From a virus: a DNA stretch of 64,000 bases. The notes below the pieces were generated by a model, which was not told the DNA's origin, did no database searches, and saw only the letters and a list, made by a program, of their open reading frames with translations. This document shows, piece after piece, positions 2 to 58,588 of the stretch (position 1 is the first letter of the stretch; every line of letters begins with the position of its first letter). The stretch is taken from positions 26,504-90,503 of IMG/VR virus record IMGVR_UViG_3300021960_006131; one strand, 5' to 3'. A program made the position numbers and the translations under genes.

Positions 2-574
2 ACTGGTAATAAAGTAAATTGGACAGGGGCATACTTAGGTAATAGTATCCGTGGCGATTATCCTATAAAAAAATCACTGGCAAGTTTATTGAAAGGTGAG
101 ATATTTGGTATAGCAAATGGCCGTGCAGAGTTTGGTCCAAGAGCATTAGGTAATAGAACATTATGTGCTGATCCAAGAGGCAATAAAATTAAAGATGCTG
201 TAAACAAAATCAAACGTAGACAAGAGTTTAGGCCTTTTGCTCCAATTATACTAGAAGAACATGTACACGACTATTTTGAAATGCCAGGGCACATTAGTAA
301 TGCTCCATATATGCAATTTGTAGCAAGATGTAAAAAGCCAAAAGAATTTCCAGCAATAGTTCATGCAGATGGTACAAGCAGAGTACAAACAGTTAATGAA
401 ACAGAACATCCTGACTTGTATGAACTAATGACACAATTTTATAACGAGACAGGTTGCCCAATGATACTGAACACTAGTTTAAATATCAAAGGAATGCCTA
501 TAGTCAATGATGAGAAAGATGCCGCAGACTTCGAAGAAAAATACAACGTCCCAGTCCACACTAAGGACGATTAA
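2..574 (+). CDS. Carbamoyltransferase (NodU/CmcH/TobZ family), C-terminal domain; 5'-truncated by the window
   Basis: Motifs GRAEFGPRALGNR, KRRQEFRPFAP, VHADGTSRVQTV and LNTSLNIKGMPIV. The frame is open from position 2, so the TTG at 89 is not the true start. Confidence 0.93.
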   Translation, partial: TGNKVNWTGAYLGNSIRGDYPIKKSLASLLKGEIFGIANGRAEFGPRALGNRTLCADPRGNKIKDAVNKIKRRQEFRPFAPIILEEHVHDYFEMPGHISNAPYMQFVARCKKPKEFPAIVHADGTSRVQTVNETEHPDLYELMTQFYNETGCPMILNTSLNIKGMPIVNDEKDAADFEEKYNVPVHTKDD

Positions 575-752
575 GAAAAAGTTGCAAGGTAAGTGTACTA
601 CCTGTGGTGGTACTTTGCCAGATCATATTGGTGTATGTCCTGTATGGGGAGAAGAGATATTGCGTAAATATGACAAAATTGATATGGAGGTAGAACATAT
701 TAGTACAGTGGTGCAAAGAGTAGTAGACGAGTTAGAAGAAAGATATGTATGA
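507..752 (+). CDS. Small hypothetical protein with a possible Zn-binding motif
   Basis: CTTC-x6-H-x3-C motif; overlaps both neighbours in an operon-like arrangement; start codon uncertain. Confidence 0.6.
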   Translation: MMRKMPQTSKKNTTSQSTLRTIKKKLQGKCTTCGGTLPDHIGVCPVWGEEILRKYDKIDMEVEHISTVVQRVVDELEERYV

Positions 753-41600: not shown

Positions 41601-44600
41601 CAAACGCATCTTTTGTAATTTTTGTAGACTTAATTGTTTTTAAAACTGTATCTAAAATATCTAAGTTTGTTTGTTCTAAATAATCATTATTTTTCAAATA
41701 CAGTTCTAAATTTGTTAAAAACTTTCTTTTAAACTTGTTGTACTCGTCATTACCAAATCTTAAAGCATTAAGTACATTTCTATTTTGATTTTTGCTAAGA
41801 TACATTGTGTGTAATAAGTCTGAGTCAACTTGACCAATATTGATATTATTGACATTCAGCGATCTACTAGTATCTTTATAATTATTATTTCCTGTGACTT
41901 TTCCTGTAAAGCCTACTTGACTTTCCAGTATTTTATTACTGTGACCAATTAAGTCACTTAATCGTGTTTCTGTTATTTCAGTATTCTTTGGATTGTATTT
42001 TAATGCACTAGGAATTTCAAAGAAACCGTATGCATCTATACCTGTTTTTCTAGGGCCTTTGGTGTATGTCTTAATATTAAGAACATCGGTGTCTTTTGGC
42101 AAAACTGTTTCTGTAAAATCAAAATCAAATGTTGCACCTGTTCCATGGCCGTTGCTTGATGCTGTTGTAATTATAGAACTGATGTTTCCAGGGTGTCCAA
42201 CTAATTCGCTATATAATCCGTAGTTGCTAACACTTATAGATTTTATTTGTCCACCGCCGTTACTGATATTACCGTCATATGCTTCTGCATCTGTAACAGT
42301 AATCTGTACGTTAGAATTGCTACCTGCAATACTTAATGTTAGTACATCATTTTGTTCGTAACCTGTTCCTGTTTCTCTAAGTGTTACACTTTTTAATGTT
42401 GGATTTAATACAATACCTGTACTGCTGTTTCGAATTGCAAAATCTTTGTTTTTAACTAATGGTGTGTCATTTAGTTTAACTAAAATATCATCATTGTATG
42501 GTGTTGCACTGGTTGTAAAAAATCTATCTTGATAATTTATTTTATCAATAATGATTACATCTTCAACATACTGTTTTGAATATGTTGAATGCACATCTTC
42601 GTAAAATTTAAAATTAGATATATCAAAATTGCCTGCTGATATATTTGCATTTGCTACAAAATACTGATTATTATGTTTTACTACTTCGTTAGCATAATAT
42701 GTTGCAGTATTACTAAAGTCTCTATAGTGTGTTGGTAAATTAATTGGATGCCAATTGTTTCTAAATCTTGTATTATCATTACCTACATAGTCTTGCTGTA
42801 AATCTTTGAAAAACAAATAGCCTGGTATAGTTGATATGTTTGCTAATAAATTTGCTTTATATGTTACAGTATGGTTACCTAAATGATTAAAAAATGTAGG
42901 TTCACTATTAAATTTGCTTGTCTGATAAACAACATTAGCACCTAACTCGCTATCATAAGTTACAGTTTTAGCACTGGTTTTATCAGTGTTATATGTAAAA
43001 ATTGGACATCCAGTAAAATTACTAAATGGATATTTTGCTGGATCATTGACCTTGACTCCTTCTGAGTCATACAAATTAAATAACGGTTCTTGGTTAATTT
43101 TGATTTTTTGTTGTGCTTGTTTCCAAGATGTACCTGTCCAATAATAATCTAATCCAATGTTAGTACCTGTTACACTATACACATGGCCGTTTGTTACAAC
43201 TAAATTGCTTAATTCTGAATCTTGTGTAAACGATATTAAGCCACCATTATCAACAATCCTGTAAACATTCTGTGAAATACTTGTTTCATCTTGTGGGAAA
43301 ATAATACTTGCATTAGCAGTACCTGATGCACTATTAATAGGAAATCCTATACCTAGTCCTTCTAATTCTTCTTTTTTCTTATCAGCAATTATGTCTACTT
43401 TTGATATAAAAGAATTACCCCAGTTATATAATTCTATATCTCTATTAAATTCTATAATCGGTCTAGTTGCTCTTTTGGCTGTATCTGGTAAAGCAAATCC
43501 TGTTACATTATCTTTGAGTGGTTCTCTTAGTTCGTTTACATGCCACCAGTAATTTAATCTACTCCACGGATTTTGGTTTTTAGCACCGCGTTCAATTACA
43601 TAATAATCTGCTTTGTCTTGTGTAGTTTCTGAATTCCATGGTGTGGCATCCCAGCCTTTTACTTCGTCAATGTTGAATTCAATTTGTGGATTATTATAAG
43701 TTTTATGAAAATCATCTATAGCAAAATTTGTACTCCAAACTACACCGTCTGGTAAGTAATATGTTCCGCCATCGTCAACTCTTGCATATACGACATTACC
43801 TGTTCGTTGAACATTATTTCCTAAGTATCTTACATTGTTTGTTACTGCATCTCCTACTCGTAATTGTAAATTACCTAACCACATTGACGAACTGGCCCAT
43901 GGGGAACTTGGATCAGCACCACTTAATGTGCCGTCTGCAATGTTTCTCCATGATTCTTTAAAATCGCCTCCAGTTGTTACTGTGAAGTCATCTGGCAGGT
44001 TTGAATCTGCATAATATTGTAGTAATACAGATTGAGTGTATGTTGAAGCATTTGATTGCTCAAATGCAAAATCTGTATATTCTGCATAAGCAGATGTTGA
44101 GTCAGATGGCTCTTTTAGTTGTATTGCTACACCTACACCAGACACAATGTATGCTTTGTCAACAGAATAATTTGTACCTGTGATATACTGGCCGGTAAAT
44201 TTAACAACCATGTCATTTCTTAATGCCTGTCCTGTTGGCGAAGTATAACTTGTTAGGCCTACAATATTATCAATGTTAATAGTGACATTGGCACTACCTG
44301 TAATATCTGTTACTTCTGGACCAGTTGGGTACCAATAGTAGTCCTGATAATTAACTAATTTGTCATAGTTAATAGGTGGTGCGTATGAGTATTGGGTTGT
44401 CTTAAAAAGTCTATCATGGTTTTCTATTAAACCGCCCTTGCTTCTTAGATCATATAAAAAATCTTCATAAAAAGAAAAATTTGTTGGTTTGCCTGTGTTA
44501 GAATTAACTGTAGTAACTACAGGATCAAAACTATAGTATTCTCTATTCGGTGCAGGTTGTTCTATAAAAACTGTATTACTAGTGATATCCCTAGGTGTTC

Positions 44601-44727: not shown

Positions 44728-47700
44728 TAGTATCCACTTCCACTTGAGCCACTGCTACTTGAGCCACTGCTACTGCTACTGCTACTGCTACTGCTACTTG
44801 TTGTGTTTGATTTTGTGATTGCATTTCCTTTAATTTGTTTTAAATTACTTGCAGACAAACTTTTTACAATTTCAATATTGTCTACTGTTGCTGTTGAAAA
44901 GAATAACTCTTCTGATGACGCTCTAACTTGATATAAATCACCAAAAATTGATTCTGATTTCTTAGGCACAATAACAACCGATGCTATTGCTCTGCCTAAC
45001 TCTTGGTGTATGTATGCACTTAACTCTGAAAAATAAAATGTTTCTCCAAAGTCCCAATTTTCTACAGCAAAATAATTGTTAACCAATTCTAGTACAGCAC
45101 TTCGGATCTCTGCATCACTTGTAGCACTTCCAGGAAGTTTAACAACTTTTATTTTTGCTTGTAATTCTTCATCTGCATCATCACCAAATAATAATTTAAA
45201 TTTACCACTACTATAAACTAATTGATCACTTACACTCTTGAATTGATCTAGTCCTGCAAATTCTTGTGACAACTGTTCTGCTGTGGGTGGTTTTGGTAAT
45301 ACTGTTGTTCCGCCATTTCTATAACTTATCATTTCTTGATAATATGTTTTTGTCAACATAAACATTTCTACAACATTGCTTATACTCGGGTCTATTCTAA
45401 CATCACTAGGTGCAATGTGTTGCCATTCAAAAGAACACTTTCTTGGACTTTCTTGTAGTGTGTTTTGTTCAAAACTCCTACCAACTTTAACATTATACTG
45501 ATTATTAGATGTCAGCACAATCATTTTAGGTGTAGTGACGTCGTTGATTAATTCATACACCTTAGGTAATAATGCTCTTGGGAATACTAATTTGTGGTTT
45601 AATTTACCTAAGTTATTTGTTAAACTGGCTTCTGCAACTGATAAATCTTTCACAATAATCAGATCGAAATCTGTGAATGCTGTTTTGTTATCAGGATCAC
45701 TGCCAGGTGCAACTGTGTCTAACACATAGTCTACAATTATATCTGTTTCAGTTGCAAAGTTTAGTATTTTAAATTTAGCAGGCCTTTCGTATGTATACCC
45801 ATCTAAGTCTGTGTATTGCTCAAAAAATACAAAATCTGTACTGCCGACAAATCTATCAAATAAATCTGGATTGTCTGGAAATCCATCATAGTCAGTATCG
45901 ATAGGCTTGACTATCACTTTTGCCGGATCGGCATATCCGTCGCTGTATCTATATGAATCTATAATTTCAAACTCTAATGGTTTGTCTAGTGCTTCGGATA
46001 CATTTTTATAAACAATTTGCAATTTATCTGCATGTTTAAATCCGTTCCACCTACTACTTAAACTGTCAAAGTCAGAAATCTTAATATGTGTGTTAGATAC
46101 TAAATCAATAAACCCTTCGTTGGCATTGTCGCCGATTTCAAATGTTGTGGTGGTTGCATTGCCAGTAAAACTTTTATAACTGCTCGAACCTACATCATAG
46201 TTCACATAAGCAATATTACCATTGGCACCGCCAGTAAGTGATACACCAAATTTTGATAGTGGTATAGTTATATCACTTGGTAATGCTGATAATTTTGCAC
46301 TATTTGATTTTACTACTGCTTTACCAGTTGTAGACGAAACAGGGTCAACTGCTATAGTTGTCGATACTGCCGGAACAAAATCACCTTGACTGTAATCTGC
46401 TGAGGCTGATACTCCTGCCTCACCATTTATTAATAATCCAAAGTTGCTGATAAATCTTACTTCTAGATCTTTTGCTTTTGCATCTCTGTTTCTTAAAATA
46501 ATTTCTGGACTGTTTCCAACATTAGGTGTATATGTGGCATTGGTTGATTCTAACTGCCAACTGTCGCTAATGTCATCTAAATTTGTATCTACCCAATTAT
46601 AAGTTTCAATCAACTCAGGTTTGAAATTTGCAGTTGTAAGTGCTATGGTATCTTTTAATACTCTACCTGTTTTACTGTCAAATGTTTTTTCGTCTCCTGA
46701 AAAATAAAATTTTATATCTTTTAAACTTTCAAACACCAGCCTTGTACCTCTAGATGTTACTGTATAATTTGAAATGCTGGTTGTACTGGTTGTATTATTG
46801 TATTCAAATTTCATTAACCAACTTGCACCACTTGATATTGTTGCTACAAATTCTGCATTTTTTTCTAAATTTGAATTATCAATTATGTACCAATGTGTGC
46901 CATTTGATTCTGAAGGATTAAAATTATATCCTATGCCAAAATCTTCTTTGGCATTAATTCTGTTTTCGAATGCTGTGCCAATATCTTGTTCTAGTAATGC
47001 AGAATTAAGAGTAGGAATAACTTCTACTGCTCTAAATGAATTTTTAATTTCTTTGTTTAATTTTACTACACCTTCAGTAACACTCAATAAATTTGTTGGC
47101 ACACCATTATTTGTAATACTTGTAATAGTTGCTAATTCTTCAATTGTAGGATCATTTGGATCTCTGAATTTTACGTAAGACCCTTGCTGAATAATTCTAT
47201 TTTCGTTAACACTATTATTTAAAACCGTTCTTGCACCGTTTTGTATTCTTGTAAAATACCCTGTGTTATTTTTATTTTTGCTTGGCTGTGTTACCCAAGT
47301 AATATCTTTATTATTTGCTGTTAAGTCAAATGCTAATGCATCTACTTGCTTATGCAACTTTCTGTAATCGTCATACATAAAGTTTTGTAAATTAGTATCT
47401 TTTGTAATATTTGCAATATCTTCTTTTAAAATCTGTGCAGTTGTCTTACTTGACCCAAAACTTAAATACGAGGCTTTCTCCTCTATGTCCTTATATAATG
47501 CACCGTCATCTGCAAATGATGTTACACTACTAAATCTGCCAGTAGGATCTTCAATATCAATGTACCTGCTGTGACCTGCATGTGTTCTATTTGTTGCTTT
47601 TAATTTTAAAATGTTTGTGCTTTGACTTAATGGGAATACATTGTAGTCTTGAGCACTAACCATTCTGTTTTGTGTATAGTAAGTTTGTGGTGCTCTGCTT

Positions 47701-48950
47701 TTAATACTTTGTAATGTTTCAGCGGCAGAACCATTTGCTATGGTAGTCTTCAATGACATAGTCATTGTTAAATTATATTTTTCGCCTTTGTTATTAAAGT
47801 ATGGTAATACTAGTTCCACATTTTGTAAATTCTGTGGCCTTACTGTGAAATTCTCGCCTATGCTTGTTCTGTAATAAATTCTAAATATACCAGAAGGTAT
47901 ATTTCCAAAGTTTCCATCTGGGAACCTAACTCTAATACCGTCATCAAATAAATTATCTATTGCATACAGATTTCTTTCTGATAGGTTTGTAGAATTGTAA
48001 TATAATGTTTGGCCTTCTAAACTATCAACTTTTTTCCAACTAAGTTGTCTAACAGCATTTGTGTCGAGTTGTTGGACAAATACATCTGTTTCGTTGATGT
48101 TTGGTGTAGCAATATCAACAGTTCTATTTGGTAATGCTCTTTCAAAGATGTAGTCTTCAAAAGTCAATGTTCCTTGTTTTACCATCATGAAGAAACCGGT
48201 GTATTCGCTGTCTAGGCCTCGCTTGTCATTTCTATAAGAAACATTTAATTGACTGTAAATATCTGGTTCTGCTTCAGTGAAAAATCCATTCTTGAGTTCT
48301 GTGCTAACTATTTCAAAAGGCACACTTACACCATTGATATTTGATGATATTGGAAATGTGGGTGTTGAACCTATTTGATTATTCAATGAATAAATGTGTG
48401 TTTCTATTCCACCAATTGTTTCTTCTTGTACAGGTTTAGTAAATGGATTGCTTAATGACAATGCACTATTTAAAATTGTAACAAACTGATCAAAACTATT
48501 TGCATTTGTTGGATCATTCCAATCTATCTGTACACCTTGTAAACTTTCTCCTGATGCATCTACTAATGGCTCAGTTGTTGATAAACTGTCTATTTTAATT
48601 AATCCACTTGCTGGAATATTTCTTTTTGGTGCATACCCTAGCATGTCTGCTAAACGCAAAATACTGTCTTTGCTTTCTGCAGTTGCTAAAAAGTTTTCTC
48701 TGGTATTAAGGTCTGCTCTAAACGATAAACTTTGTGAAAGATATGCTAATAATTCTATTATTGCAATAAATTCTGAACTTTCTATGTAGTCGTTAAATGA
48801 CTCTGGATAATTTTCTCTTATGTAGTTCAGCATTGCTGTTCGCATTGTACTGAAATCGTATGCCTTAAAACTTACTTTGGTGAATGCCTGATAAGCAATG
48901 TCCCAGTCTTCTGCGGCGAATAGATTTTGATTTCTTGTACTAATTGCCAT
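44727..48950 (-). CDS. gp6: Baseplate wedge subunit, T4 gp6-like
   Basis: YDF...ENFLATAESKDSILRLADMLGYAPKR, FPDGNFGNIP, AETLQSIKSRAP...QNRMVSAQDY, WDFGETFYFSEL; directly follows the gp25-like gene. Confidence 0.85.
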   Translation of the reverse strand: MAISTRNQNLFAAEDWDIAYQAFTKVSFKAYDFSTMRTAMLNYIRENYPESFNDYIESSEFIAIIELLAYLSQSLSFRADLNTRENFLATAESKDSILRLADMLGYAPKRNIPASGLIKIDSLSTTEPLVDASGESLQGVQIDWNDPTNANSFDQFVTILNSALSLSNPFTKPVQEETIGGIETHIYSLNNQIGSTPTFPISSNINGVSVPFEIVSTELKNGFFTEAEPDIYSQLNVSYRNDKRGLDSEYTGFFMMVKQGTLTFEDYIFERALPNRTVDIATPNINETDVFVQQLDTNAVRQLSWKKVDSLEGQTLYYNSTNLSERNLYAIDNLFDDGIRVRFPDGNFGNIPSGIFRIYYRTSIGENFTVRPQNLQNVELVLPYFNNKGEKYNLTMTMSLKTTIANGSAAETLQSIKSRAPQTYYTQNRMVSAQDYNVFPLSQSTNILKLKATNRTHAGHSRYIDIEDPTGRFSSVTSFADDGALYKDIEEKASYLSFGSSKTTAQILKEDIANITKDTNLQNFMYDDYRKLHKQVDALAFDLTANNKDITWVTQPSKNKNNTGYFTRIQNGARTVLNNSVNENRIIQQGSYVKFRDPNDPTIEELATITSITNNGVPTNLLSVTEGVVKLNKEIKNSFRAVEVIPTLNSALLEQDIGTAFENRINAKEDFGIGYNFNPSESNGTHWYIIDNSNLEKNAEFVATISSGASWLMKFEYNNTTSTTSISNYTVTSRGTRLVFESLKDIKFYFSGDEKTFDSKTGRVLKDTIALTTANFKPELIETYNWVDTNLDDISDSWQLESTNATYTPNVGNSPEIILRNRDAKAKDLEVRFISNFGLLINGEAGVSASADYSQGDFVPAVSTTIAVDPVSSTTGKAVVKSNSAKLSALPSDITIPLSKFGVSLTGGANGNIAYVNYDVGSSSYKSFTGNATTTTFEIGDNANEGFIDLVSNTHIKISDFDSLSSRWNGFKHADKLQIVYKNVSEALDKPLEFEIIDSYRYSDGYADPAKVIVKPIDTDYDGFPDNPDLFDRFVGSTDFVFFEQYTDLDGYTYERPAKFKILNFATETDIIVDYVLDTVAPGSDPDNKTAFTDFDLIIVKDLSVAEASLTNNLGKLNHKLVFPRALLPKVYELINDVTTPKMIVLTSNNQYNVKVGRSFEQNTLQESPRKCSFEWQHIAPSDVRIDPSISNVVEMFMLTKTYYQEMISYRNGGTTVLPKPPTAEQLSQEFAGLDQFKSVSDQLVYSSGKFKLLFGDDADEELQAKIKVVKLPGSATSDAEIRSAVLELVNNYFAVENWDFGETFYFSELSAYIHQELGRAIASVVIVPKKSESIFGDLYQVRASSEELFFSTATVDNIEIVKSLSASNLKQIKGNAITKSNTTSSSSSSSSSSSGSSSSGSSGSGY
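44733..44799 (-). repeat. Poly-Ser/Gly C-terminal tail from an (ACTGCT)n microsatellite
   Basis: Tandem actgct and cttgagccactgcta repeats encode TTSSSSSSSSSSSGSSSSGSSGSGY. Confidence 0.9.
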
Positions 48951-49321
48951 TATGTGTCTCCGTTAAAGTCTCTTTCTAACCTTACTTCCAATACATCTTC
49001 GCTTTGATCTACTTTGTATTGTAAATAAAGTTCTACTTTAAGAAAATGATCTGAATTTTCTACGTTTGTGCTAATTAAATCTACTCTAGGATCATTACCT
49101 ACTATATTAACACATTCATCTTCTATATCTTGTTTGGTTAGGTTGTCAAACGGCTCCATTAGAATATCATGAATGATACTACCAAAATTTGGTCGCATAA
49201 CACGTTCCCCTTTTCTAGTCAAAAAATGATTCAGTAAATCTTGCTTAACTAAATCTAAATCCGTTAGTGTATAGGGTGGTTTTTGCTTGTTATCTGTGCT
49301 AAATCCAATAAATGTTGCCAT
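48950..49321 (-). CDS. gp25: Baseplate wedge protein, gp25/GPW family
   Basis: LLNHFLTRKGERVMRPNFGS...DPRV. Confidence 0.92.
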   Translation of the reverse strand: MATFIGFSTDNKQKPPYTLTDLDLVKQDLLNHFLTRKGERVMRPNFGSIIHDILMEPFDNLTKQDIEDECVNIVGNDPRVDLISTNVENSDHFLKVELYLQYKVDQSEDVLEVRLERDFNGDT

Positions 49322-49326
49322 ACAAG

Positions 49327-49334
49327 TATTTATC
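49327..49334 (-). promoter_or_regulatory. Late promoter GATAAATA
   Basis: GATAAATA-CTTGT-ATG. Confidence 0.75.
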
Positions 49335-49386
49335 AGTATTATTAACGGATACTTTAATGATAGGTGGTTTTGCGACTTTTTATATA

Positions 49387-49953
49387 CTACTGATTGACTT
49401 GCTGACTAGCCATGTTGATCAACGCAATTTTTTGTGCGTCCGTCATGTTATTCAGTGCTTTTTGTATTTTTGATAATTCACCTGGATCAGTAGTGCCGCC
49501 ACCTAATTGATTGGGTTGTGACTGGTTGCTGACACCTGGTTGTTGCGCCATTGCAATGGCTAAGAAAATTTCTTGTTTGGTTTGTGCATCAAAATTAACA
49601 TCATCATTTTGTTTAAATGATTTTTGTACTGATGGCAGTCCAGCAAACATAGGAAAACCTGCCGCTTGTTGGCCTTTAAGTACATTTGATGTTTTTATAA
49701 ATTCTTTAAATTGTCCAGAATTTAAATAATTTGGATCTTGATTTGGATATTTTGCGGCTAGCCATTTAATATAAGCATCTGAAATTTTATTAGCACCTTT
49801 TAGACCCTGTGATCGTACTTTGCCCTGAATGGATTTATTATATGCAGTTTTACTAACTTTACCTGCAATCGCATTTCCTATATTTTTAGCACCCTGGGCC
49901 ATTCTTGCACCAATGCCAAATTCTTTTTCAGTTATTACTTCGTCAATTCTCAT
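49387..49953 (-). CDS. Hypothetical late protein, possible internal head protein
   Basis: N-terminus MRIDEVITE resembles T4 capsid-targeting leaders ending in I-x-E; AGGAG SD and GATAAATA at 49974-49981. Confidence 0.6.
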   Translation of the reverse strand: MRIDEVITEKEFGIGARMAQGAKNIGNAIAGKVSKTAYNKSIQGKVRSQGLKGANKISDAYIKWLAAKYPNQDPNYLNSGQFKEFIKTSNVLKGQQAAGFPMFAGLPSVQKSFKQNDDVNFDAQTKQEIFLAIAMAQQPGVSNQSQPNQLGGGTTDPGELSKIQKALNNMTDAQKIALINMASQQVNQ

Positions 49954-50035
49954 ATTAAATATCTCCTGCCAGTTATTTATCTCTTTTCTTATAACAAAGA
50001 AATAATTACAAGTACAACTATATAAAGAGGATAAT

Positions 50036-50587
50036 ATGAATTATGTATTAGCAGTTGCATTAGCAGACGAATTACAGGGTATACAAGGCAACTATAACAC
50101 AATTATTACAGGTGTTGGTAAAATCAATGCCACACTCAAACTCACTGAGTATTTGACAAACAATCCAGATACTGAATTAGTAATTAACTATGGTACAGCA
50201 GGTGGCATTGACCCTAACATGAAGGGAATGTTGCACATTGGAAAATTTGTACAAGCAGATATGGATTGCAGAGCATTTGGTTTTGAACAATTCCAGACAC
50301 CGTTTGAAACAAATACACATGAAATAATAGTTGACAACAAAGGGTTTACATGTTATACTCAAGATAAGTTTGCTACAACCAAACCAGATGGGTATTGTAA
50401 TGTAGTTGATATGGAGGCGTATGCACTTGCAAAAGTGTGTATGCATTTTGATGTAAACTTTAAATGTATGAAGTTTATAAGCGACATCATTGGACAAGGA
50501 GATCAGACATCCGAATGGCAGGCGAATAAAGCATTAGGTGTTGAAATGTTTGAAAGTTCGCTTAAAGACTTAATTGGAGAAAAATAA
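50036..50587 (+). CDS. mtnN: 5'-methylthioadenosine/S-adenosylhomocysteine nucleosidase
   Basis: TGVGKINA, INYGTAG, QADMD, VDMEAYALA and KFISD. Confidence 0.9.
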   Translation: MNYVLAVALADELQGIQGNYNTIITGVGKINATLKLTEYLTNNPDTELVINYGTAGGIDPNMKGMLHIGKFVQADMDCRAFGFEQFQTPFETNTHEIIVDNKGFTCYTQDKFATTKPDGYCNVVDMEAYALAKVCMHFDVNFKCMKFISDIIGQGDQTSEWQANKALGVEMFESSLKDLIGEK

Positions 50588-52584
50588 TGAACGATTTTGA
50601 TAAAAACTTTCACATAAACTTTAGTCCACTATATTTTGCATTTGCATTTATGATGTTCATGCTATGGGCAAGTGAGGCGAAGGCCAGTGACATAGAAGAA
50701 GTTATAGTAGTTGCTCAACAAGAAAGAACAGTTGAAGCAGACCCAGTAATTAACAGTAGACTGGTCGATGCTATAATGCCTATTTTTACTTATAACCCAG
50801 GGGGTTATGGTGGCTTTATAGGATATAACGAACGTGGTGCTCAAACAGTACACACATCAGTTATAGTAAACGGTATACCTGCTAACGACCCAGGAGCAAG
50901 TTGGTATGACTTTGGACATGACTTTGCCAGTGGACAAAGTGTAAAAGTTGTTACTGGTGCTAACGGTGTGCTGTATGGCAGTGGCAGTATTGCTGGTACT
51001 GTATTAATACAAGACACAATAGAACACGGACTCACTGTCAGAGGCGGCGATCAAAAATATCACAGAGTGGCCCCTATTGATCAATTAGAATTCAGTATGG
51101 TAGATGCCAGTATGGTCAGTGCTAGGAACGACAACGACGAAGAAGACAATTACAAAAATAAAACTGCTAGATTTAATGTTGACGCAGGTGACTTTACTAT
51201 TGTAGGGAAATACTCTGAATACGAATACGATTACGACAACTGTTATGATTATGACTGGGGTCAAAGTAACGACTGCTTACAAGACGGAACAAGATATAAC
51301 ATTGCTATTCGAAATGATTTAATGACAATTGGTAGAAATTACAATACTGCTAATTATTTTACAGTAGAAGATCCTACATACAGCAACGAAAGTTATAGAG
51401 ACTTTGTGAGATTTGGCGGTGATGCTAAACTCAGTAACAAGATAGAAATTGCTTACGGTATAGATGCTGAAAAAATTTATTACAATACTAACAGTTGGCA
51501 GAACATAGAAGGCACCATGGTTGTGGAAACAGAAATCACAGAACCAGGTATATGGTATGCAGAAGCCGACACAAACAAAGTCAGACCAATGTGGACAGGT
51601 ATCTATATTGGTACTGGTGAATTCAATAGCGAAACTGTTGGCGATGGTGTTTTCACACTCACCGAAGTCAAAGAAAAATACACGGATGAGAATGCCGGTG
51701 CTTACTTTACAGTAAACGCAGACTTTATTTTCAGTTACAACTTTGGATTTAGAGTAGGCAATGACGATCAAAATGCTTACCGATTTGGTATAGAAAATGG
51801 TCCATGGTTCTTTAACATGGGCGACAGTTTTAGAAAACCTAACTTATATGAATTAAATGGCGACGGATTTGTAACAGGCAATCCAAACTTACTGCCTGAA
51901 CAAGGAGTTGGTTACGAACTCGGCTACGGTGCTATTAGTATATTTAGATACGAATTTGAAGAATCAATTGAGTATGTGCCAAGTGTTACCACAGACTTCA
52001 CAACCACAAGCATAGTTTTTGATGCTGAAGCAACTTTAAATCAAATAGGAACAAATCCTGAGGCACCGGACCCAACTTATGTTTCGTGTGTGTTAAATCC
52101 AAACTGGACTGCCAACGACGAAGCAACATTTGAACTGCCTGGGTGCATATATAAAACTGTGTCTACTGTTAATCAAATATATACTGCTCCTACATACAGT
52201 AACACAGGCGAATATGTTACACAAGGAATTAGATTTAATAATGTGTTTGGACCTGTTACTGTAAACCTAAAATGGACTGACACAGAACAACCACGTGTGC
52301 CTGAATATGCCGGAGCAATTACAGTGAATCAAAACTTCAAAGGGGTTGACTTTAGATTACATTATGCTGTAAACTTAAATCGTAAACCAGGTGAATGGGA
52401 TTTTATCGAAGATGAATATCTTGAAGACTTAGAAAGACTGGATATTAATATCACTAAAAGGTTTGCAAATGGTGTAACACTTTCTTTGAACGTGGAAAAT
52501 CTCACAGACGAAGTTGTTGAAGTTGTGCCGTTTTACAATAGCACACAAAGACAAACAACACTAGTGTTAGATTACAAATGGTAA
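50587..52584 (+). CDS. TonB-dependent outer-membrane receptor (BtuB-like plug)
   Basis: Signal-peptide-like segment ending A-K-A; TonB-box-like EEVIVVA; plug motifs ERGAQTVHTSVIVNGIPAND and VVTGANGVLYGSGSIAGTV; SFRKPNLYEL...GNPNLLPE; NVENLTDE; C-terminal LDYKW. Confidence 0.88.
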   Translation: MNDFDKNFHINFSPLYFAFAFMMFMLWASEAKASDIEEVIVVAQQERTVEADPVINSRLVDAIMPIFTYNPGGYGGFIGYNERGAQTVHTSVIVNGIPANDPGASWYDFGHDFASGQSVKVVTGANGVLYGSGSIAGTVLIQDTIEHGLTVRGGDQKYHRVAPIDQLEFSMVDASMVSARNDNDEEDNYKNKTARFNVDAGDFTIVGKYSEYEYDYDNCYDYDWGQSNDCLQDGTRYNIAIRNDLMTIGRNYNTANYFTVEDPTYSNESYRDFVRFGGDAKLSNKIEIAYGIDAEKIYYNTNSWQNIEGTMVVETEITEPGIWYAEADTNKVRPMWTGIYIGTGEFNSETVGDGVFTLTEVKEKYTDENAGAYFTVNADFIFSYNFGFRVGNDDQNAYRFGIENGPWFFNMGDSFRKPNLYELNGDGFVTGNPNLLPEQGVGYELGYGAISIFRYEFEESIEYVPSVTTDFTTTSIVFDAEATLNQIGTNPEAPDPTYVSCVLNPNWTANDEATFELPGCIYKTVSTVNQIYTAPTYSNTGEYVTQGIRFNNVFGPVTVNLKWTDTEQPRVPEYAGAITVNQNFKGVDFRLHYAVNLNRKPGEWDFIEDEYLEDLERLDINITKRFANGVTLSLNVENLTDEVVEVVPFYNSTQRQTTLVLDYKW

Positions 52585-52621
52585 AAATATCATATTTTGA
52601 TTTCATAAAGCAAGTTTTATA

Positions 52622-52628
52622 GTAAATA
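52622..52628 (+). promoter_or_regulatory. Possible late promoter GTAAATA
   Basis: Intergenic, upstream of a TAGGA SD and the ATG at 52660. Confidence 0.5.
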
Positions 52629-52659
52629 CAAGTATATCATTTAACAACATAGGACCAAA

Positions 52660-52923
52660 ATGAAAACTGATAGAATTATTAAAAAAATAGTTTCTACATT
52701 CAAAGAATTAGAAGCAAAAGCAGACGATCTTAATAACGCATCTGGCGTAACCTTTATACACCCGTTAATGCAAAGAGATAGACGAGGCAAGTTTGATAGT
52801 TTGGGATTTTATAATTCTAAAACAAAAAAATATGCAATCGTTTTTATTATAGATTATATTGCAAGAACAGTAGATAACATACCTGAGTTAGACGAAATGA
52901 GAAGCGTCGTAGTCAGCAAATGA
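52660..52923 (+). CDS. Hypothetical protein
   Basis: 87-aa ORF with SD; ATGA overlap with the next gene. Confidence 0.75.
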   Translation: MKTDRIIKKIVSTFKELEAKADDLNNASGVTFIHPLMQRDRRGKFDSLGFYNSKTKKYAIVFIIDYIARTVDNIPELDEMRSVVVSK

Positions 52924-53132
52924 CCGATACAGTAACAAAAAAATTCACTAACAACACTTTAGAAGAAGAATTAAGAACTATGCTTGTTGAAAAAAATAAC
53001 GAGTGTAACAATCTAAGAAGTCGAATTGAAATGTTAGAAAAGTCTGTTGCAGAAGAGCAAGAGCAAAAGTACAGAGCATTAATAAAAGCGGCTGACTTAC
53101 AAAGCGAGTTGAATAAACTTAAATTAAAGTAA
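52920..53132 (+). CDS. Small coiled-coil protein
   Basis: Heptad pattern LEEELRTML...LRSRIEMLEKSV...LQSELNKL. Confidence 0.7.
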   Translation: MTDTVTKKFTNNTLEEELRTMLVEKNNECNNLRSRIEMLEKSVAEEQEQKYRALIKAADLQSELNKLKLK

Positions 53133-53937
53133 ATAAATTTGCTTCGGCACTTCTTCTATTAAATAGAAATGTACTGATACCCATAGAGGCCTTTAATGGT
53201 ATTTCTGCAAACTCCATAAAATATGTAGCACACTGATAGTCACCACTATTTAAACATTTGACTATTTTGCTAGTTGTGAATTTTTCATTACCTATATCAA
53301 ATGCCAATGATAATAATGCTGTAAACTGATTATTATTTACAGGTACTTTGATTTTATCAGCAACAATATTAAATGCAATTTGTAAATCCAAAGAAAGCAA
53401 TCTGTTAATTAATTCTGGTCTAGCACCGTTAACTAAACTGTAAACGTAAAAATTATTTTGTTCATCATAAACTGCAATAGAACGATTTGCTCTTGCGTAA
53501 TCTATAACTCCATTTCTTATAAGCATTGTTCCTTTTAGAAAAGGATGATTTTTTCTTATGATTTTTGCAACATCAGGATGATCCAATTTTAGCATAGTCG
53601 AATCATTAAATGCCAAAAGCATATTAGATATCTCTGCTTCTTGTAACTTATGTCCTATGCCTATTACTGTTTCATTGCCAACTTGCGTGGGTGTTATACT
53701 TGAAGGATAATTTGTCTTGATAAACTCTCTTGCTTTTTTTAATACAATATTAGGTATGATGTTATTTGTATAATTAAAAACAGGAACGGTGTCTCTGGTT
53801 TTTTTGTAAGATGCTATTTTATAATCATTGCCTTCAAAATACTGACCTTCAAAATATGCATCTGGAGTGCAATAGTTTAAAGGAACTGTGTCGCTAGAGT
53901 CGAGTTGGCCTATTACTAAATCATCAATGTATGCCAT
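53119..53937 (-). CDS. GH24 lysozyme-like protein, apparently degenerate, baseplate-associated
   Basis: TVIGIGH, VPVNNNQFTALLSLAFDIG and RRSAEANLF. True start is likely 53937 (TAATG overlap with the gp5-like gene). Confidence 0.72.
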   Translation of the reverse strand: MAYIDDLVIGQLDSSDTVPLNYCTPDAYFEGQYFEGNDYKIASYKKTRDTVPVFNYTNNIIPNIVLKKAREFIKTNYPSSITPTQVGNETVIGIGHKLQEAEISNMLLAFNDSTMLKLDHPDVAKIIRKNHPFLKGTMLIRNGVIDYARANRSIAVYDEQNNFYVYSLVNGARPELINRLLSLDLQIAFNIVADKIKVPVNNNQFTALLSLAFDIGNEKFTTSKIVKCLNSGDYQCATYFMEFAEIPLKASMGISTFLFNRRSAEANLFTLI

Positions 53938-55553
53938 TATTTGTTCCTGCGTGAAGGACTTGGCTCTATGCCAGGCCATCTAGTAATAATTGTGTTGATT
54001 TTTTTATCAAATAACAATAACGGTGTTAATGGACTTCTGCCCTGTTCTGCTCTTTTGGGATAACCACCTGATAGTATTCCTGCTAGTTCAAACGACAATA
54101 ATGTATTTGTTGTGGTTGTTGTGTCAATACCTGTAAGATTTGGCACAACTGGTAAAGGTGGTAGAGTAGGTAATGTTGTTGTTTGTATATCAACTGTGCC
54201 ACCTGCATTTACATAAGTGTTTGTTGTACCTAATATATGTGTATGGGTAGTAGAAAAAATATCTACGTCGCCCATTGATTTTATTTGTAGTGTGGGTTCT
54301 GATGGTGGATTATTAGCAGATGCCGGTGCGGCTATTTCTACCTGTGTTCCTGCCATGTGTACTTTGTTATCGCCAAATAATTGCAAACTACCTGGCATTG
54401 TGGTGCCAGAAGTTGTAAATAATCTAGGCCTTGCTTCTATGCTGATAGCATTAGAATACATATTAATATCTTTTACGCCTTCAATGTTTACACTACCATT
54501 ATTCAACACATCTTGATATTTTGGATTTAGGTAGGCTAACTCCTCTATATCTACCACACCTTTTTCTGTTTCTTCTCTATCTTCAGGGTGTGGATAGTTG
54601 TTAGCGGCTTTGATATTAACATTTTGTCCTGCTTCTATGTTTACATTTTTGTCTGCTCTGAGATTCATATCACCAGATGTTCTGACATTGTAACTGCCTG
54701 TACCGTAAATGTCTATGTTACCGTCAGCATCTATTTCTATGTGGCCAGTACCTGATTTATTTGATATGTATATTAAATTTTCTGCATCGTTGAGAACAAT
54801 TTGATTTCCGCCACCGGTACGAATTCTTATGTGCGGGTTATCATTGTTATCATCCATTACTAATTGATGCCCTGGATGTCTTCTTCTTGGATCTTTAGGA
54901 TTCTTAGGTCCAGGTGTTAAAATACCATATACCTCACTTGCTCCTTCTCTTCTTGCTCCACTGGTGCTTTGCCCTCGTATAAAGTCATCGATCAATCCTT
55001 GTGAGAACAACACACTTTCTAATTCATGCATTGGTCTGCTGTCTGCTTTGACTTTTATGTTTTTAACAGAGCCTGTATATTCCACATTGTGATCTTTGAT
55101 ATTAGAATTCATATTGGCTTCATTTACTGGTGTGACTCCGCCAACGGATTTACCTGCTGGTATACCTGGCACCATGAAGTTTCGTTGTTGTTGGAAAAAA
55201 CAACCTAACACAATAGCAACCTTTGATTTGGTGTTATCGTCTATGGAAAATCCTACCACCACTTGGTTCTCTGGATCAGGTGGTCTCATCCACATTCCAT
55301 AACTGGTCTGACTGACTTCTGGAGAATCCTTGCTGTCTACTCCCGTAGGGGGAGTTGCTCCAGCAAATGGTGATGCCCACTTACATTGAAATAATGCATC
55401 AGCACTTGCATCTGTGCCTGTTATTTCAGGAATGTGTACCCACATGTATCCATTTCTTGTGGGATCGTCTGTGCTTTTTACTGTGCCAATGTACAATGTA
55501 CCACCTGAACTAACAGCACTATCGACTTTGTTTTTATATTTTGATGGTATCAT
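53937..55553 (-). CDS. gp5: Baseplate central spike, gp5/VgrG-like
   Basis: OB-fold-like IGTVK..DDPTRNGYMWVHIP, SPFAG, SYGMWMRPPD; GHQLVMDD...IRTGGGNQI; beta-helix-like repeats. Confidence 0.78.
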   Translation of the reverse strand: MIPSKYKNKVDSAVSSGGTLYIGTVKSTDDPTRNGYMWVHIPEITGTDASADALFQCKWASPFAGATPPTGVDSKDSPEVSQTSYGMWMRPPDPENQVVVGFSIDDNTKSKVAIVLGCFFQQQRNFMVPGIPAGKSVGGVTPVNEANMNSNIKDHNVEYTGSVKNIKVKADSRPMHELESVLFSQGLIDDFIRGQSTSGARREGASEVYGILTPGPKNPKDPRRRHPGHQLVMDDNNDNPHIRIRTGGGNQIVLNDAENLIYISNKSGTGHIEIDADGNIDIYGTGSYNVRTSGDMNLRADKNVNIEAGQNVNIKAANNYPHPEDREETEKGVVDIEELAYLNPKYQDVLNNGSVNIEGVKDINMYSNAISIEARPRLFTTSGTTMPGSLQLFGDNKVHMAGTQVEIAAPASANNPPSEPTLQIKSMGDVDIFSTTHTHILGTTNTYVNAGGTVDIQTTTLPTLPPLPVVPNLTGIDTTTTTNTLLSFELAGILSGGYPKRAEQGRSPLTPLLLFDKKINTIITRWPGIEPSPSRRNK

Positions 55554-55558
55554 AAGTC

Positions 55559-55565
55559 TATTTAT
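55559..55565 (-). promoter_or_regulatory. Late promoter ATAAATA
   Basis: ATAAATA-GACTT-ATG, overlapping the upstream stop codon. Confidence 0.6.
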
Positions 55566-58500
55566 TACGTCCCTGGATCAAATGCAGGGTTGTTTCCGCC
55601 GCCGGCTTGGCCGCCTGTGTTACTAGGTCTCACACCTCTAACACCTGTGCCAGGTATTATTCCATTTGGGGTTCCTAGACCTTCAAACCTGTTTTCCAAA
55701 AGATTTGACAGTGATGCATTTACATCAGTGGCTATGGCAACGGGATTATTTTCTATTTTTTCAGTGTTCTCTTCTGCTTTTTCTTCTGCTATTTCTTCTG
55801 CTTTTTCTTTTCTTAATTCCACTATGGGTAGTTGTCCTTTATATACTTGCTTTAATGCATTTAATGTTTGTGTAAACTTTCCTCCTGCAAATTGGTGTTG
55901 TACTTGATATACTTGAAACTGCCCAGAAAATGATTTATTCATGCTGAGATCTGTTATTTCACCAGTGTGCGTATTTTGGTCATCGCTCCACATGTCATAT
56001 TCTCTGGGAAATAGATATGCAAAAAAGAAACTGACTTCCCCTATTCCATATGGAGCGGTATTTGTTTCTTTGGCTGTGTTTCTTACTGCACCAATATCAT
56101 TTTCTAAATCTCCTAAAAATTGCTTGCCTTGTGTCATAGTATATTGTTTATTTTTAATACTGTCAATTGGCATTCCTAACCAGTATGGATCTCCTTTGAT
56201 TTCTAGACTGGTTTTAACCATGTATGGTGCACCTACTGTAGAATTAGATAACATGGTGCTGAAAATACTTCTGTTTGCAAATTTTGATGCTGGACCTACT
56301 AATCCTGTTTCACGATTTAAGACACCACTATAACTTGTATCTGCTACACCAAGAGGTTTAGGCTGAAATGTGCTAGGGTCCACGTCAATCATATAACTGT
56401 TATTATCAAATTCAAACTCTTCCATGTAGGTATTTTCTATGGTACTTACTGATTGAGTAACAGTTGATCCTCCAGGATTAAAACCAGGTGGAGTACTGTC
56501 GGTATTAGTATCTACAGCATCGGATGTGTACTTGTCTGTTGCTTTTTTGGCTTCATCAAGTAATGCATTTGTGTTGATCCCAAACTGGTCAATGCCCAGG
56601 TCCCCAGTTGTAGATTCTATCTTGTCAATGAAATCATTTATACCTGCACCTATGGCACTCAATTTACTGTCAATGACATCAAACGGTGTGAATGCCTTAG
56701 ACATAATTTTGCTTATTTGTTCATCTATTGTTTCGCTGATTGCTCCTTGTATTTTTTCTTGCAATTCTGTTATAGAATTAGTTAATGTAGATACCTCATC
56801 AGTTAAATTTGTTACACTCTCTAATTTTTGTAAAACTGCTACTGGCGAACTTGGTAACCTTGCGTTCACCATTCTTACTTTGCCAACCTTACTTGATATG
56901 CCGTCTGGTTTATTGCCTTTGGCAAGTGCCGCTAAATCTTGTGTGATTGTTATTGGTAACATTGCCAATGATGTGATTGTTGATTTTAACTCTGTTGCTA
57001 TTTTGGCAAATTTATCCAATATCTCTTTTTCTGTTGCTGGATTGTCCCCAGCCTCTTTTTTGTCTGTTTTATCTATTGCCTTATTGCTTGGGGCCGCGGC
57101 TGGTGATAGTGTATAATTTGATTGCTTGCCTCCTTTACCTGGAAATAAATACCTAACGCCATATTCCTGTTTTAAATCAACATCAATTATTTGATCATTT
57201 AGACCAGTATATGTATATGCATAAAATTTTGATACATCTCTGTCTTGGGCGGCTTTAGTAATCTTATCGTTATACTTGTTGTCTTCTATATTTAACTCTG
57301 CAGGATCTATCACAATCGCAGAATCTAACTTACCTGTTAAATTATAAGTGTATGTTAATGCAAGTTTATTATCAGACTTAAAAGATTTACCATCCCATTC
57401 TGTAGTTACATAAACATCAGGAACTAGATATTGCGTCTTGTCCTCATTCAAAGTTTTTGGATCAAACTCCGAACTTTCAGGAGCCACATCATATCTGCCA
57501 CAATGTTTACAAAAGTCAGAATTAAGGCTTGCCAGTGATATCATTACATCTTCGACCTTTGTGTTTTTGGGTATATTAACTGTTATAGTCTTACCAGAGT
57601 TTCCGTCATTTCCTGTATCGGCCTGTCCGCTTTGATCTTTTTCTTTTACTTGCGAAATAGTACTTTCATTGGTATTTGGTTTTATTTTTTTAATATCTAG
57701 GTTTCCAGTATAATCATCATCAATTTTAAGTACCTCAAATATATCTTTCAATCCAGGCATTCCATGACTTGCTAATTTATATACTCCTATATCAAAACTT
57801 GGTTTTTTGTTATCACTGCTTTCGCTCTTTTGTGTTTGTATTGATTGTTGTTTATCTTTCATTTGTTTAGAAAAATCAGCCAATAGTTCGTTGACTGTTG
57901 AACCGGATATCGTTAATTCTTCGGGTGCTGTTTCAACTGTGGTATCTGCCACAGGAGCAAAGTTATGTATAGGCACACATCTAACTTCGTAAGTTGTGCC
58001 TTGTTTTGCTCCATCCATCTCAAAGTCTATTAGTCGTATAGGATATGCATTGTGATAAAATACTTCACCTAACTCGGCACTCTCACTACTATTTTCAAAA
58101 TTGTCTTTTTGTCCGATTAATTCTATTTCCAATAACAAAGGCATTTGTTGTATAGGCGGATTTTTTGCTAGGTTAAGATCTTTGTTTAATTCATACATTG
58201 TCCTATTCAGCAAATCAATAAACGACATGCCAAACGGCTCTAACAACGAAAAACTTAAAACAAATGGATAAATTCTGTTCCCTCGTAAATTTTTAGGAGC
58301 AGTTTTACTCACAACAGATGATATCTGCAAATTGTCTATTTGAAATTTTGTTACACCAGTTTGTGCTATGATGATTCTGGCGCCACCTGAACCGCCCTTA
58401 CCTACATTAAGATCCAAATTCACTTGAGGATTTTGATGAAACGAAAAGGGCAACATACTTAAAGTTAATTTGTATGTATACGAATAGTACGAATCAACAG

Positions 58501-58588
58501 TATTGTCTACGATATTCTGTCTAACACCGTCTGGAATAAATCTTTTTAGATACTCCCCTGCATCTGGTCCTTGAGTTTCTTGAGCCAT
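55565..58588 (-). CDS. Baseplate hub protein (gp27/GPD-like) with a central helical insertion
   Basis: C-terminal LEIKGDPYWL and FSGQFQVYQVQHQFAGGKFTQTL; lies between the gp53-like and gp5-like genes. Confidence 0.65.
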   Translation of the reverse strand: MAQETQGPDAGEYLKRFIPDGVRQNIVDNTVDSYYSYTYKLTLSMLPFSFHQNPQVNLDLNVGKGGSGGARIIIAQTGVTKFQIDNLQISSVVSKTAPKNLRGNRIYPFVLSFSLLEPFGMSFIDLLNRTMYELNKDLNLAKNPPIQQMPLLLEIELIGQKDNFENSSESAELGEVFYHNAYPIRLIDFEMDGAKQGTTYEVRCVPIHNFAPVADTTVETAPEELTISGSTVNELLADFSKQMKDKQQSIQTQKSESSDNKKPSFDIGVYKLASHGMPGLKDIFEVLKIDDDYTGNLDIKKIKPNTNESTISQVKEKDQSGQADTGNDGNSGKTITVNIPKNTKVEDVMISLASLNSDFCKHCGRYDVAPESSEFDPKTLNEDKTQYLVPDVYVTTEWDGKSFKSDNKLALTYTYNLTGKLDSAIVIDPAELNIEDNKYNDKITKAAQDRDVSKFYAYTYTGLNDQIIDVDLKQEYGVRYLFPGKGGKQSNYTLSPAAAPSNKAIDKTDKKEAGDNPATEKEILDKFAKIATELKSTITSLAMLPITITQDLAALAKGNKPDGISSKVGKVRMVNARLPSSPVAVLQKLESVTNLTDEVSTLTNSITELQEKIQGAISETIDEQISKIMSKAFTPFDVIDSKLSAIGAGINDFIDKIESTTGDLGIDQFGINTNALLDEAKKATDKYTSDAVDTNTDSTPPGFNPGGSTVTQSVSTIENTYMEEFEFDNNSYMIDVDPSTFQPKPLGVADTSYSGVLNRETGLVGPASKFANRSIFSTMLSNSTVGAPYMVKTSLEIKGDPYWLGMPIDSIKNKQYTMTQGKQFLGDLENDIGAVRNTAKETNTAPYGIGEVSFFFAYLFPREYDMWSDDQNTHTGEITDLSMNKSFSGQFQVYQVQHQFAGGKFTQTLNALKQVYKGQLPIVELRKEKAEEIAEEKAEENTEKIENNPVAIATDVNASLSNLLENRFEGLGTPNGIIPGTGVRGVRPSNTGGQAGGGNNPAFDPGT

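Follow-up and report, generated by a model that had tools for sequence, protein, structure and literature searches.

TonB-dependent receptors are usually viewed as doors exploited by phages, not as genes that phages carry. This text concerns a receptor gene of that kind at 50587..52584 (+) of the window, which here means the whole stretch of 64,000 nucleotides analysed (positions 26,504 to 90,503 of the IMG/VR virus record IMGVR_UViG_3300021960_006131). By sequence profile and by structure, its best match is the B12 transporter BtuB of Escherichia coli (PDB 1NQE-1NQH, 2GSK), with which it shares the order of TonB box, plug, barrel and terminal aromatic residue. The BtuB1-3 proteins of Bacteroides thetaiotaomicron (PDB 8BLW, 8BMX, 8P97, 8P98) form the second group in both rankings (Z 32-34; E about 1e-3). 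These are B12 transporters of about 620-700 residues that have a BtuG surface lipoprotein as a lid.

Phage-borne TonB-dependent receptors are already in print. The report on the marine megaphage Mar_Mega_1 describes a putative SusC-type TonB-dependent receptor, read by its authors as an auxiliary gene for nutrient uptake (PMC9723777). A TonB-dependent receptor is also annotated in the pelagiphage Skadi (PMC10504331). Like the present gene, that of Mar_Mega_1 encodes a TonB-dependent receptor and comes from a marine phage that is uncultured and has a very large genome. The two are set apart by description: the Mar_Mega_1 receptor was called SusC-type and linked to carbohydrate uptake, whereas the receptor here is BtuB-like and belongs to PA5oct-like phages. 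Literature searches found no publication on a virus-only family of BtuB-like receptors, though supplementary tables may list such genes. A further comparison is with Llp of phage T5 (PDB 8A60), which is likewise made by a phage and acts in the outer membrane of the host, on a TonB-dependent receptor. Llp, however, is a small lipoprotein that binds and blocks the host's FhuA, whereas here the phage encodes the receptor itself.

The best explanation of the gene is that its product works as a TonB-dependent transporter in the outer membrane and belongs to a virus-only, BtuB-like family, with cobalamin or another corrinoid as the likeliest cargo. We give this explanation as a whole an even chance of being right. 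Probably the virus equips the infected cell with a nutrient gate of viral origin.

The receptor gene and its product

The open reading frame (ORF) at 50587..52584 (+) is one uninterrupted frame of 665 codons for amino acids. It encodes a complete TonB-dependent receptor with signal peptide, TonB box, Plug domain, BtuB-sized barrel and terminal tryptophan. Confidence in the model is given below as the predicted local distance difference test score (pLDDT), and dN/dS is the ratio of nonsynonymous to synonymous substitution rates.

50587..52584, plus strand: gene for the BtuB-like TonB-dependent receptor, 665 residues (ORF, PF07715, profile against PDB, model, dN/dS)
50587..50685, plus strand: signal peptide, residues 1-33, with a long conserved N-terminal extension (by eye; helices 6-11 and 13-26 in the model)
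50689..50715, plus strand: TonB-box-like segment, residues 35-43 (conservation; alignment with the start of the BtuB chain)
50719..51027, plus strand: Plug domain, residues ~45-147 (PF07715 on residues 64-138; pLDDT 78-92 in the second model)
51028..52581, plus strand: beta-barrel, residues ~148-665, ending in Trp (DSSP strands; superposition to BtuB residue 594)
51115..51144, plus strand: acidic loop, residues 177-186, with N183, E185 and D187 invariant (39 sequences)
51241..51276, plus strand: signature loop closed by Cys219 and Cys230, after Y-x-Y-D-Y-D, with C219, C230, Y214, D215 and D217 invariant (39 sequences)
51496..51657, plus strand: insertion 1, residues ~304-357, which lengthens a long beta-hairpin (within DSSP strands 286-323 and 335-379; pLDDT 75-83)
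52021..52149, plus strand: insertion 2, residues ~479-521, a loop with two short helices and Cys501/Cys520 (pLDDT 51-67)

Inspected by eye, the signal peptide has a hydrophobic core at residues 14-28 and the residues A-K-A ahead of Ser34. The part before the core (residues 1-18, 50587-50640, plus strand) is long and conserved, which is unusual for signal peptides; F8 and H9 are nearly invariant among 25 long-form members. Extended signal peptides also occur in some autotransporters, and the conserved extension resembles these.

The TonB-box-like stretch (residues ~35-43) is acidic and aliphatic. Its E37, E38 and V41 are invariant in 25 sequences, and V41 is also invariant in the set of 39. The first aligned residues of the model, 29-34, pair with BtuB chain residues 6-11 in the VIA-align superposition. 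The Plug domain is matched by Pfam PF07715 at 31.5 bits, against a cut-off of 23.9. The Pfam barrel model PF00593 has no match on the window receptor; precomputed matches to it exist on some relatives. The last residue is a tryptophan, and W665 is nearly invariant in the 25-sequence alignment. All four elements named in a preliminary description of this DNA (signal peptide, TonB box, plug and terminal Trp) are thus present, as judged by eye, by the conservation of E37, E38 and V41, by PF07715 and by W665.

That description had also pointed to paired cysteines. The receptor has exactly four, forming exactly two pairs, 219/230 and 501/520. C219 and C230 are invariant in 39 of 39 aligned family members, and C501/C520 is confined to members that have insertion 2. 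Insertion 1 is missing from members of 578-588 residues, and both inserts are missing from the short members.

Measured against three relatives, the dN/dS of the receptor gene is 0.08-0.09. The gene is under purifying selection.

Relationship to BtuB

The closest characterised relative of the receptor family is BtuB. Four independent kinds of comparison point to it: a profile search of the PDB, superposition of the model, the NCBIfam models and the nearest representatives outside the family. In the PDB, the best match to a profile of 39 members is E. coli BtuB, with E 1.7e-18 to 6e-18 over chain residues 53-593; Bacteroides B12 transporters and Cir come next, at E 1e-3 to 8e-3. The NCBIfam model TonB-B12 is matched by 30 of the 39 members at E <= 0.01, and it is the best model for all ten of the nearest non-family representatives tested. 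The best member reaches E 1.5e-15 against the BtuB equivalog models, far below their cut-offs (599.7 bits for TIGR01779 and 836 bits for NF007926). For the window receptor the sole NCBIfam match is a weak one, confined to the plug region, to a hemoglobin/transferrin-type model. PHROGs gives it one match, to a family with no assigned function.

A first AlphaFold model, made with 25 close relatives, was mediocre (pLDDT 70), and every Foldseek match obtained with it was a TonB-dependent receptor. The second model, made with 39 sequences from across the family, reached pLDDT 85.2 and a predicted template-modelling score of 0.76, with a confident plug. When it was superposed on known structures with VIA-align, ranks 1-10 were all E. 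coli BtuB (Z 35.8-37.0, root-mean-square deviation 2.3-2.6), aligned over 470-503 residues of 544-590 chain residues and reaching chain residue 594. Rank 12 was again E. coli BtuB (Z 34.0), and ranks 11 and 13-15 were Bacteroides BtuB (Z 32.1-34.4). Heme receptors come next in the ranking, at Z of about 31. A plug-and-barrel fold, whose absence would have spoken against the preliminary description, is therefore what the superposed model presents.

The same description had seen a shortened barrel with long insertions and had proposed to compare the number of strands with the canonical 22. The two inserts are there, and the family core has 535 profile positions where mature BtuB has 594 residues. 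The barrel is nevertheless predicted to be complete and BtuB-sized, not reduced, because the superposition spans the BtuB barrel to residue 594 (it covers chain residues 6/11 to 594), and a number of strands below the canonical one is not supported by a model that covers the whole of it. DSSP assigns 27 strand segments past residue 147, several of which are bulge-broken parts of one strand. Insertion 2 is the least confident part of the barrel.

Acidic loops of the phage family appear to lie at the aligned positions of the calcium-binding loops of BtuB, which order its B12 site. In a profile alignment that is weak in this region, E185 falls on BtuB D179, D199 on D193, and C219-Y220-D221 on N228-Y229-D230. 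The acidic loop and the Cys-closed loop of the family would thereby align with the two calcium-binding loops of BtuB, which tentatively favours a B12 transporter as well. The family differs from BtuB in several ways: it has a Y-x-Y-D-Y-D-x-C...C disulfide loop and, in the window member, two inserts; it has a long conserved extension of the signal peptide; no cobalamin riboswitch, a usual though not a defining feature of btuB leaders, was found in 49300-53300 of the window; and the family is found on viral contigs only. Identity is 18-19%, and scores stay far below the NCBIfam BtuB cut-offs.

A family found in viruses

A word-indexed search returned 570 relatives. Nearly all are unnamed metagenome proteins; the named ones are a few entries labelled 'hypothetical protein' and one JGI 'outer membrane cobalamin receptor'. 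When 1.84 billion representatives were searched exhaustively, only 444 proteins came out at E <= 0.001, and 28 of these fall below 1e-30. Ordinary full-length receptors start at about 1e-8, with matches to the plug only. Because of this gap between 1e-30 and about 1e-8, there appears to be no close cellular relative among the representatives.

Signature motifs were also scanned in 185,579 prokaryote species genomes, one for each species, and gave no relative among 23 and 29 pattern matches. The corresponding scans of IMG/VR gave 14 confirmed relatives in 17 pattern matches, 297 in 350 and 186 in 598. The contrast of 297 viral relatives with 0 cellular ones was obtained with the motif of the Cys219-Cys230 signature loop, and such scans are blind to cellular relatives that lack the motifs. 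In the ESM Atlas, the label Viruses 100% is carried by each of the three nearest clusters. A quick maximum-likelihood tree separates the family, as a single clade, from the ten nearest non-family representatives, with a Shimodaira-Hasegawa-like approximate likelihood ratio (SH-aLRT) support of 100.

From these searches the receptor family looks restricted to viruses, and a phage-only clade, which had been put forward as a check, is what the tree, the scans, the gap in E-values and the Atlas clusters all return. Within the family, divergence reaches about 32% identity, with plug, barrel, acidic loop and disulfide loop still conserved. No cultured phage among 50,697 GenBank phage records carries it: neither tblastn of the receptor nor megablast of 44000-56000 gave a match there, though near-identical records may be absent from that collection.

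A phage gene in an accessory slot

The window record is 90.5 kb long and has a CheckV completeness of 25%, which implies a genome of several hundred kb. The receptor stands in a plus-strand cassette between minus-strand virion genes.

48950..49321, minus strand: gp25-like baseplate wedge gene, left border of the slot (PF04965; phrog_261, phrog_43)
50036..50587, plus strand: gene for a nucleosidase of the 5'-methylthioadenosine/S-adenosylhomocysteine (MTA/SAH) type, 183 residues, PNP_UDP_1 superfamily (PNP_UDP_1 46 bits; NCBIfam nucleosidase models all below cut-off)
52660..53132, plus strand: two small ORFs of 87 and 70 residues that close the cassette (no family match; after the receptor in 13 of 13 type-A loci)
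53119..55553, minus strand: lysozyme-domain protein and baseplate hub, right border of the slot (PF00959; phrog_13211; PA5oct gp350-gp353 order)

The stop codon of the nucleosidase gene overlaps the start codon of the receptor gene. The position had been described as the opposite strand inside the baseplate module, and the two bordering minus-strand features agree with this.

The receptor is a genuine phage gene, and a chimera with host DNA is excluded for practical purposes. The same arrangement occurs in 12 other IMG/VR contigs from different samples. Together with the window these are the 13 type-A loci, with the order giant protein, wedge, gp25 and a small minus-strand gene; nucleosidase, receptor and the two small ORFs on the plus strand; then lysozyme-domain protein and hub. 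At least half of the stretch's sampled words are held by 14 DNA runs from estuary and marine studies, 7 of which are not flagged as a possible source. A contig of 7,926 nucleotides (nt) from a run not so flagged spans 49300-52703 with 2 differences. Shared synteny and this independent contig accordingly uphold the phage origin first proposed for the receptor.

The nearest cultured relative is Pseudomonas phage PA5oct (Arenbergviridae), whose wedge protein is 40% identical. Its gp347-gp355 region has the same order of SbcC, SbcD, late sigma factor, virion proteins, hub/lysozyme, opposite-strand slot, gp25-like gene, large wedge and giant virion protein. The slot differs in content, with two small hypothetical genes in PA5oct and the nucleosidase, the receptor and two small ORFs in the window. 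Since PA5oct keeps the same module order with opposite-strand genes at this place, the receptor cassette fills a standing accessory slot. Among cultured phages, its nearest relatives have Pseudomonas, Agrobacterium and Sinorhizobium as hosts, in keeping with the diderm host that a receptor of this kind had been said to imply.

The baseplate slot is not the only setting. In a first set of 81 loci, type A accounts for 13 and type B for 52. In type B a UvsW-like helicase gene comes directly after the receptor, and RecA/UvsX-like, AAA and exonuclease genes belong to the same module. The distant short clade is mostly type B, with the helicase next in 57 of 72 loci. A third genomic setting is seen in 15 loci. 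In the tree, type-A receptors stand in at least four places among type-B ones, so either alleles have moved between phage architectures or the architecture has changed repeatedly.

Putative promoters and RNA-library contigs

The receptor gene may have its own promoter, placed within the gene that precedes it.

50331..50359, plus strand: sigma70-type promoter-like site inside the nucleosidase gene, 227 nt ahead of the receptor ATG (11 of 12 matches, 17-nt spacer, TGn)

All type-A loci (13 of 13) keep this site with its 17-nt spacer and TGn, 223-230 nt upstream of the receptor ATG. No such site lies ahead of the nucleosidase gene in type A. The embedded site is built from Val-Asp and Cys-Tyr-Thr codons peculiar to type-A nucleosidases. 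Across six distinct sequences the third positions of the promoter codons are fixed, and neighbouring synonymous sites vary. In type-A nucleosidases the protein reads C-Y-T-Q-D where those of type B (L050-L094) have the usual C-S-T-G-D, and the altered codons form the -10 element of the promoter. The case for the site at 50331 rests on this conservation and not on a promoter scan: across 49300-53300, sigma70-like sites are rarer than in shuffled sequence (10 against a mean of 15.9).

In type B, 11-12 of 12 sigma70 consensus positions are found in 45 of 50 distinct upstream regions, compared with 156 of 2000 random windows from the same loci. These sites end no more than about 50 nt from the called ORF start, which they overlap in a few loci. 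Early transcription by the host polymerase would fit promoters of this kind.

Contigs of three metatranscriptome libraries (two aquatic, one marine) fall on parts of the nucleosidase, the receptor and neighbouring late genes. One of them, 1,164 nt long, covers 51847-52875 at about 93% identity, and because of this identity it comes from a relative.

Cargo

Gene context suggests a use for a B12 transporter. The nucleosidase accompanies the receptor in both of its settings: in 13 loci it lies immediately upstream, and in 15 it lies downstream at a distance of five genes. The S-adenosylmethionine (SAM) synthetase MetK, a phosphoribosyltransferase or the nucleosidase lies within -2 to +8 genes of the receptor in 49 of 81 loci. 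Nucleosidase, phosphoribosyltransferase and SAM synthetase together make up parts of a cycle that salvages SAM and methionine and in which, in many bacteria, methionine synthase depends on B12.

Enzymes that may themselves use the vitamin are found beside the receptor in other lineages. A gene with B12-binding-like and Radical_SAM domains directly follows it in three loci (L159, 5377-6837; L165, 9554-10999; L173, 2968-4557). The spacing from the end of the tblastn receptor match to the start of that ORF is 27 nt, or 79 nt in L173. In L174 and L176 such a gene stands 4.2 kb after the receptor (13709-15268 in L176). L176 also has an AAA_5 (MoxR/CobS-like) ATPase and an 835-residue protein with no family match between the receptor and the B12-type gene. 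In Pfam scans the B12-binding-like domains beside the receptor score 20.8-29 bits. G005, a 170-kb phage that is 99% complete, has one B12-binding copy at 32.7 bits, above the Pfam cut-off of 32.1, and the 250-kb record G001 has a further B12-binding-like radical SAM gene.

These observations can be joined into a mechanism. Early in infection, host RNA polymerase would read the receptor gene from its sigma70-type promoter. The precursor would be exported by the host Sec machinery and inserted by the host beta-barrel assembly machinery (BAM), as the signal peptide and the C-terminal aromatic residue suggest. Host TonB-ExbBD may then pull on the TonB box; no phage-encoded TonB or ExbB was found in five records of 67-250 kb, all of them fragments. 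The likeliest cargo would be cobalamin or another corrinoid, and the extra vitamin would feed B12-dependent steps on which the phage relies. A candidate is the host's regeneration of methionine and SAM, which the phage group would support through a nucleosidase, an adenine-type phosphoribosyltransferase and a SAM synthetase of its own. Further users, in some lineages, would be those radical SAM enzymes of the phage that bear a B12-binding-like domain. The preliminary description had left the choice between iron and B12 for an auxiliary importer. Kinship, fold and gene context favour B12 or a corrinoid as the presumed cargo, and the iron half of that proposal is less favoured.

A B12-dependent ribonucleotide reductase was considered as the reason for import and rejected. 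What the NrdJ model matched, at 148-160 bits (its cut-off is 400), is NrdA of class Ia, and NrdB adjoins it. In the 250-kb relative (L098 in G001) positions 173-3570 hold such a class Ia pair, NrdA with an ATP-cone and then NrdB.

A number of points weigh against cobalamin transport by this receptor. Identity to BtuB in the structure alignment is low, and BtuB is the smallest solved receptor, so that size alone may raise it in structure rankings. The window receptor itself has no TonB-B12 match at E <= 0.01 in NCBIfam, and all family members stay well under the 599.7-bit cut-off. Five of six B12-binding matches found with hmmscan, and two of three in the genome scan, fall below the Pfam cut-off. 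No B12-type enzyme was found in the sequenced 90.5 kb of the window phage (25% of its genome); its own radical SAM island has no B12-binding domain by Pfam, and the G001 enzyme has no homologue in those 90.5 kb. No Rfam family, the cobalamin riboswitch included, is found at E <= 1 in 49300-53300. Ribonucleotide reductase in the phages examined is of class Ia (iron) and not of the B12-dependent class. CobS_N gave no match, and a BtuR-type adenosyltransferase gave just one sub-threshold match of 16 bits. Type-B neighbourhoods share descent and are therefore not independent observations. Contigs of the RNA libraries also cover minus-strand late genes, and contigs reveal neither strand nor transcript start, so they are no proof that the receptor is transcribed. 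Compatibility with the TonB of the host is an assumption.

Alternative explanations

The receptor could be a working TonB-dependent importer whose cargo is a different one (heme, an iron chelate or a metal, for instance) and that serves the iron enzymes of the phage. The phage group does encode a di-iron NrdB and radical SAM Fe-S enzymes, and the heme receptors ChuA and ShuA are those that follow the B12 transporters in the structure ranking. A hemoglobin/transferrin-type model is matched by 22 of 39 members and a hemin-type model by 9 of 39, and the former is the window receptor's single NCBIfam match. That match, however, is restricted to the plug. The profile search of the PDB sets E. coli BtuB (1e-18) apart from other receptors (1e-3 or worse), the nearest cellular relatives are all TonB-B12-like, and the adjoining enzymes in other lineages bear B12-type domains. 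Import of another cargo is therefore unlikely, and an inferred cobalamin or corrinoid cargo is favoured over iron. A role in defence is a little less probable again. Here the protein, strongly expressed, would titrate TonB or replace a host receptor, and so block rival phages and bacteriocins that depend on TonB (superinfection exclusion). The preliminary description had offered such a decoy or TonB competitor as its other reading, and the results neither support nor contradict it. There is a precedent for a phage protein that excludes rivals at a host receptor in the action of Llp on FhuA (PDB 8a60). The early-type, near-consensus promoter and the strictly conserved TonB box would suit such a role, as would the movement of receptor alleles between two genome architectures at least four times, a pattern also expected of conflict genes. 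Yet titration needs only an exported TonB box, and the plug, barrel and extracellular loops are conserved to about 32% identity with dN/dS of about 0.08. Host receptors already in the membrane would remain, and the link to B12-type enzymes has no role in defence.

It is very improbable that the gene is a decaying passenger with no function, or that assembly has joined host DNA to that of the phage. The opposite-strand position within a structural module and the reversal of the local GC skew over 50-52 kb might suggest one or the other. Against this, the same junctions recur in the 12 other contigs, a contig from an independent run crosses 49300-52703 with the 14 DNA runs beside it, and PA5oct has an opposite-strand slot at the same place. 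The frame is intact under a dN/dS of 0.08, and the family is in no cellular genome scanned.

Other features of the phage

A single ORF of 7,041 residues (23602-44727, minus strand) directly follows the large wedge gene, at the site of the PA5oct giant virion protein gp355. Divergence from the close relatives L002 and L003 is uneven over 44727-58588. The receptor is 97-98% identical, the nucleosidase 93%, the wedge 84% and the hub 81%. The fast-diverging products are the lysozyme-domain protein (57%), a virion protein of 1,007 residues (44%) and a minus-strand ORF of 188 residues at 49387-49953 (40%). Two related IMG/VR records other than that of the window, G002 and G006, are labelled 'provirus'.

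Implications

A wider reading can be proposed tentatively, as one that we hold to be somewhat more doubtful than not. A deep, virus-only lineage of minimal BtuB-type transporters may let many marine T4-like and jumbo phages control the acquisition of B12. The vitamin would feed the methionine/SAM cycle and phage radical SAM enzymes, and the alleles would be swapped among co-circulating phages.

If this is true, viruses take a direct part in the B12 economy of the ocean. The shortest members, with precursors of about 470-520 residues, would be the smallest TonB-dependent transporters known. Short members of this kind are a natural minimal scaffold for studies of TonB-dependent transport. If cobalamin is imported, phages would shift the uptake of a scarce seawater vitamin toward infected cells, which would bear on B12 limitation and on the viral rewiring of methyl and radical SAM chemistry.

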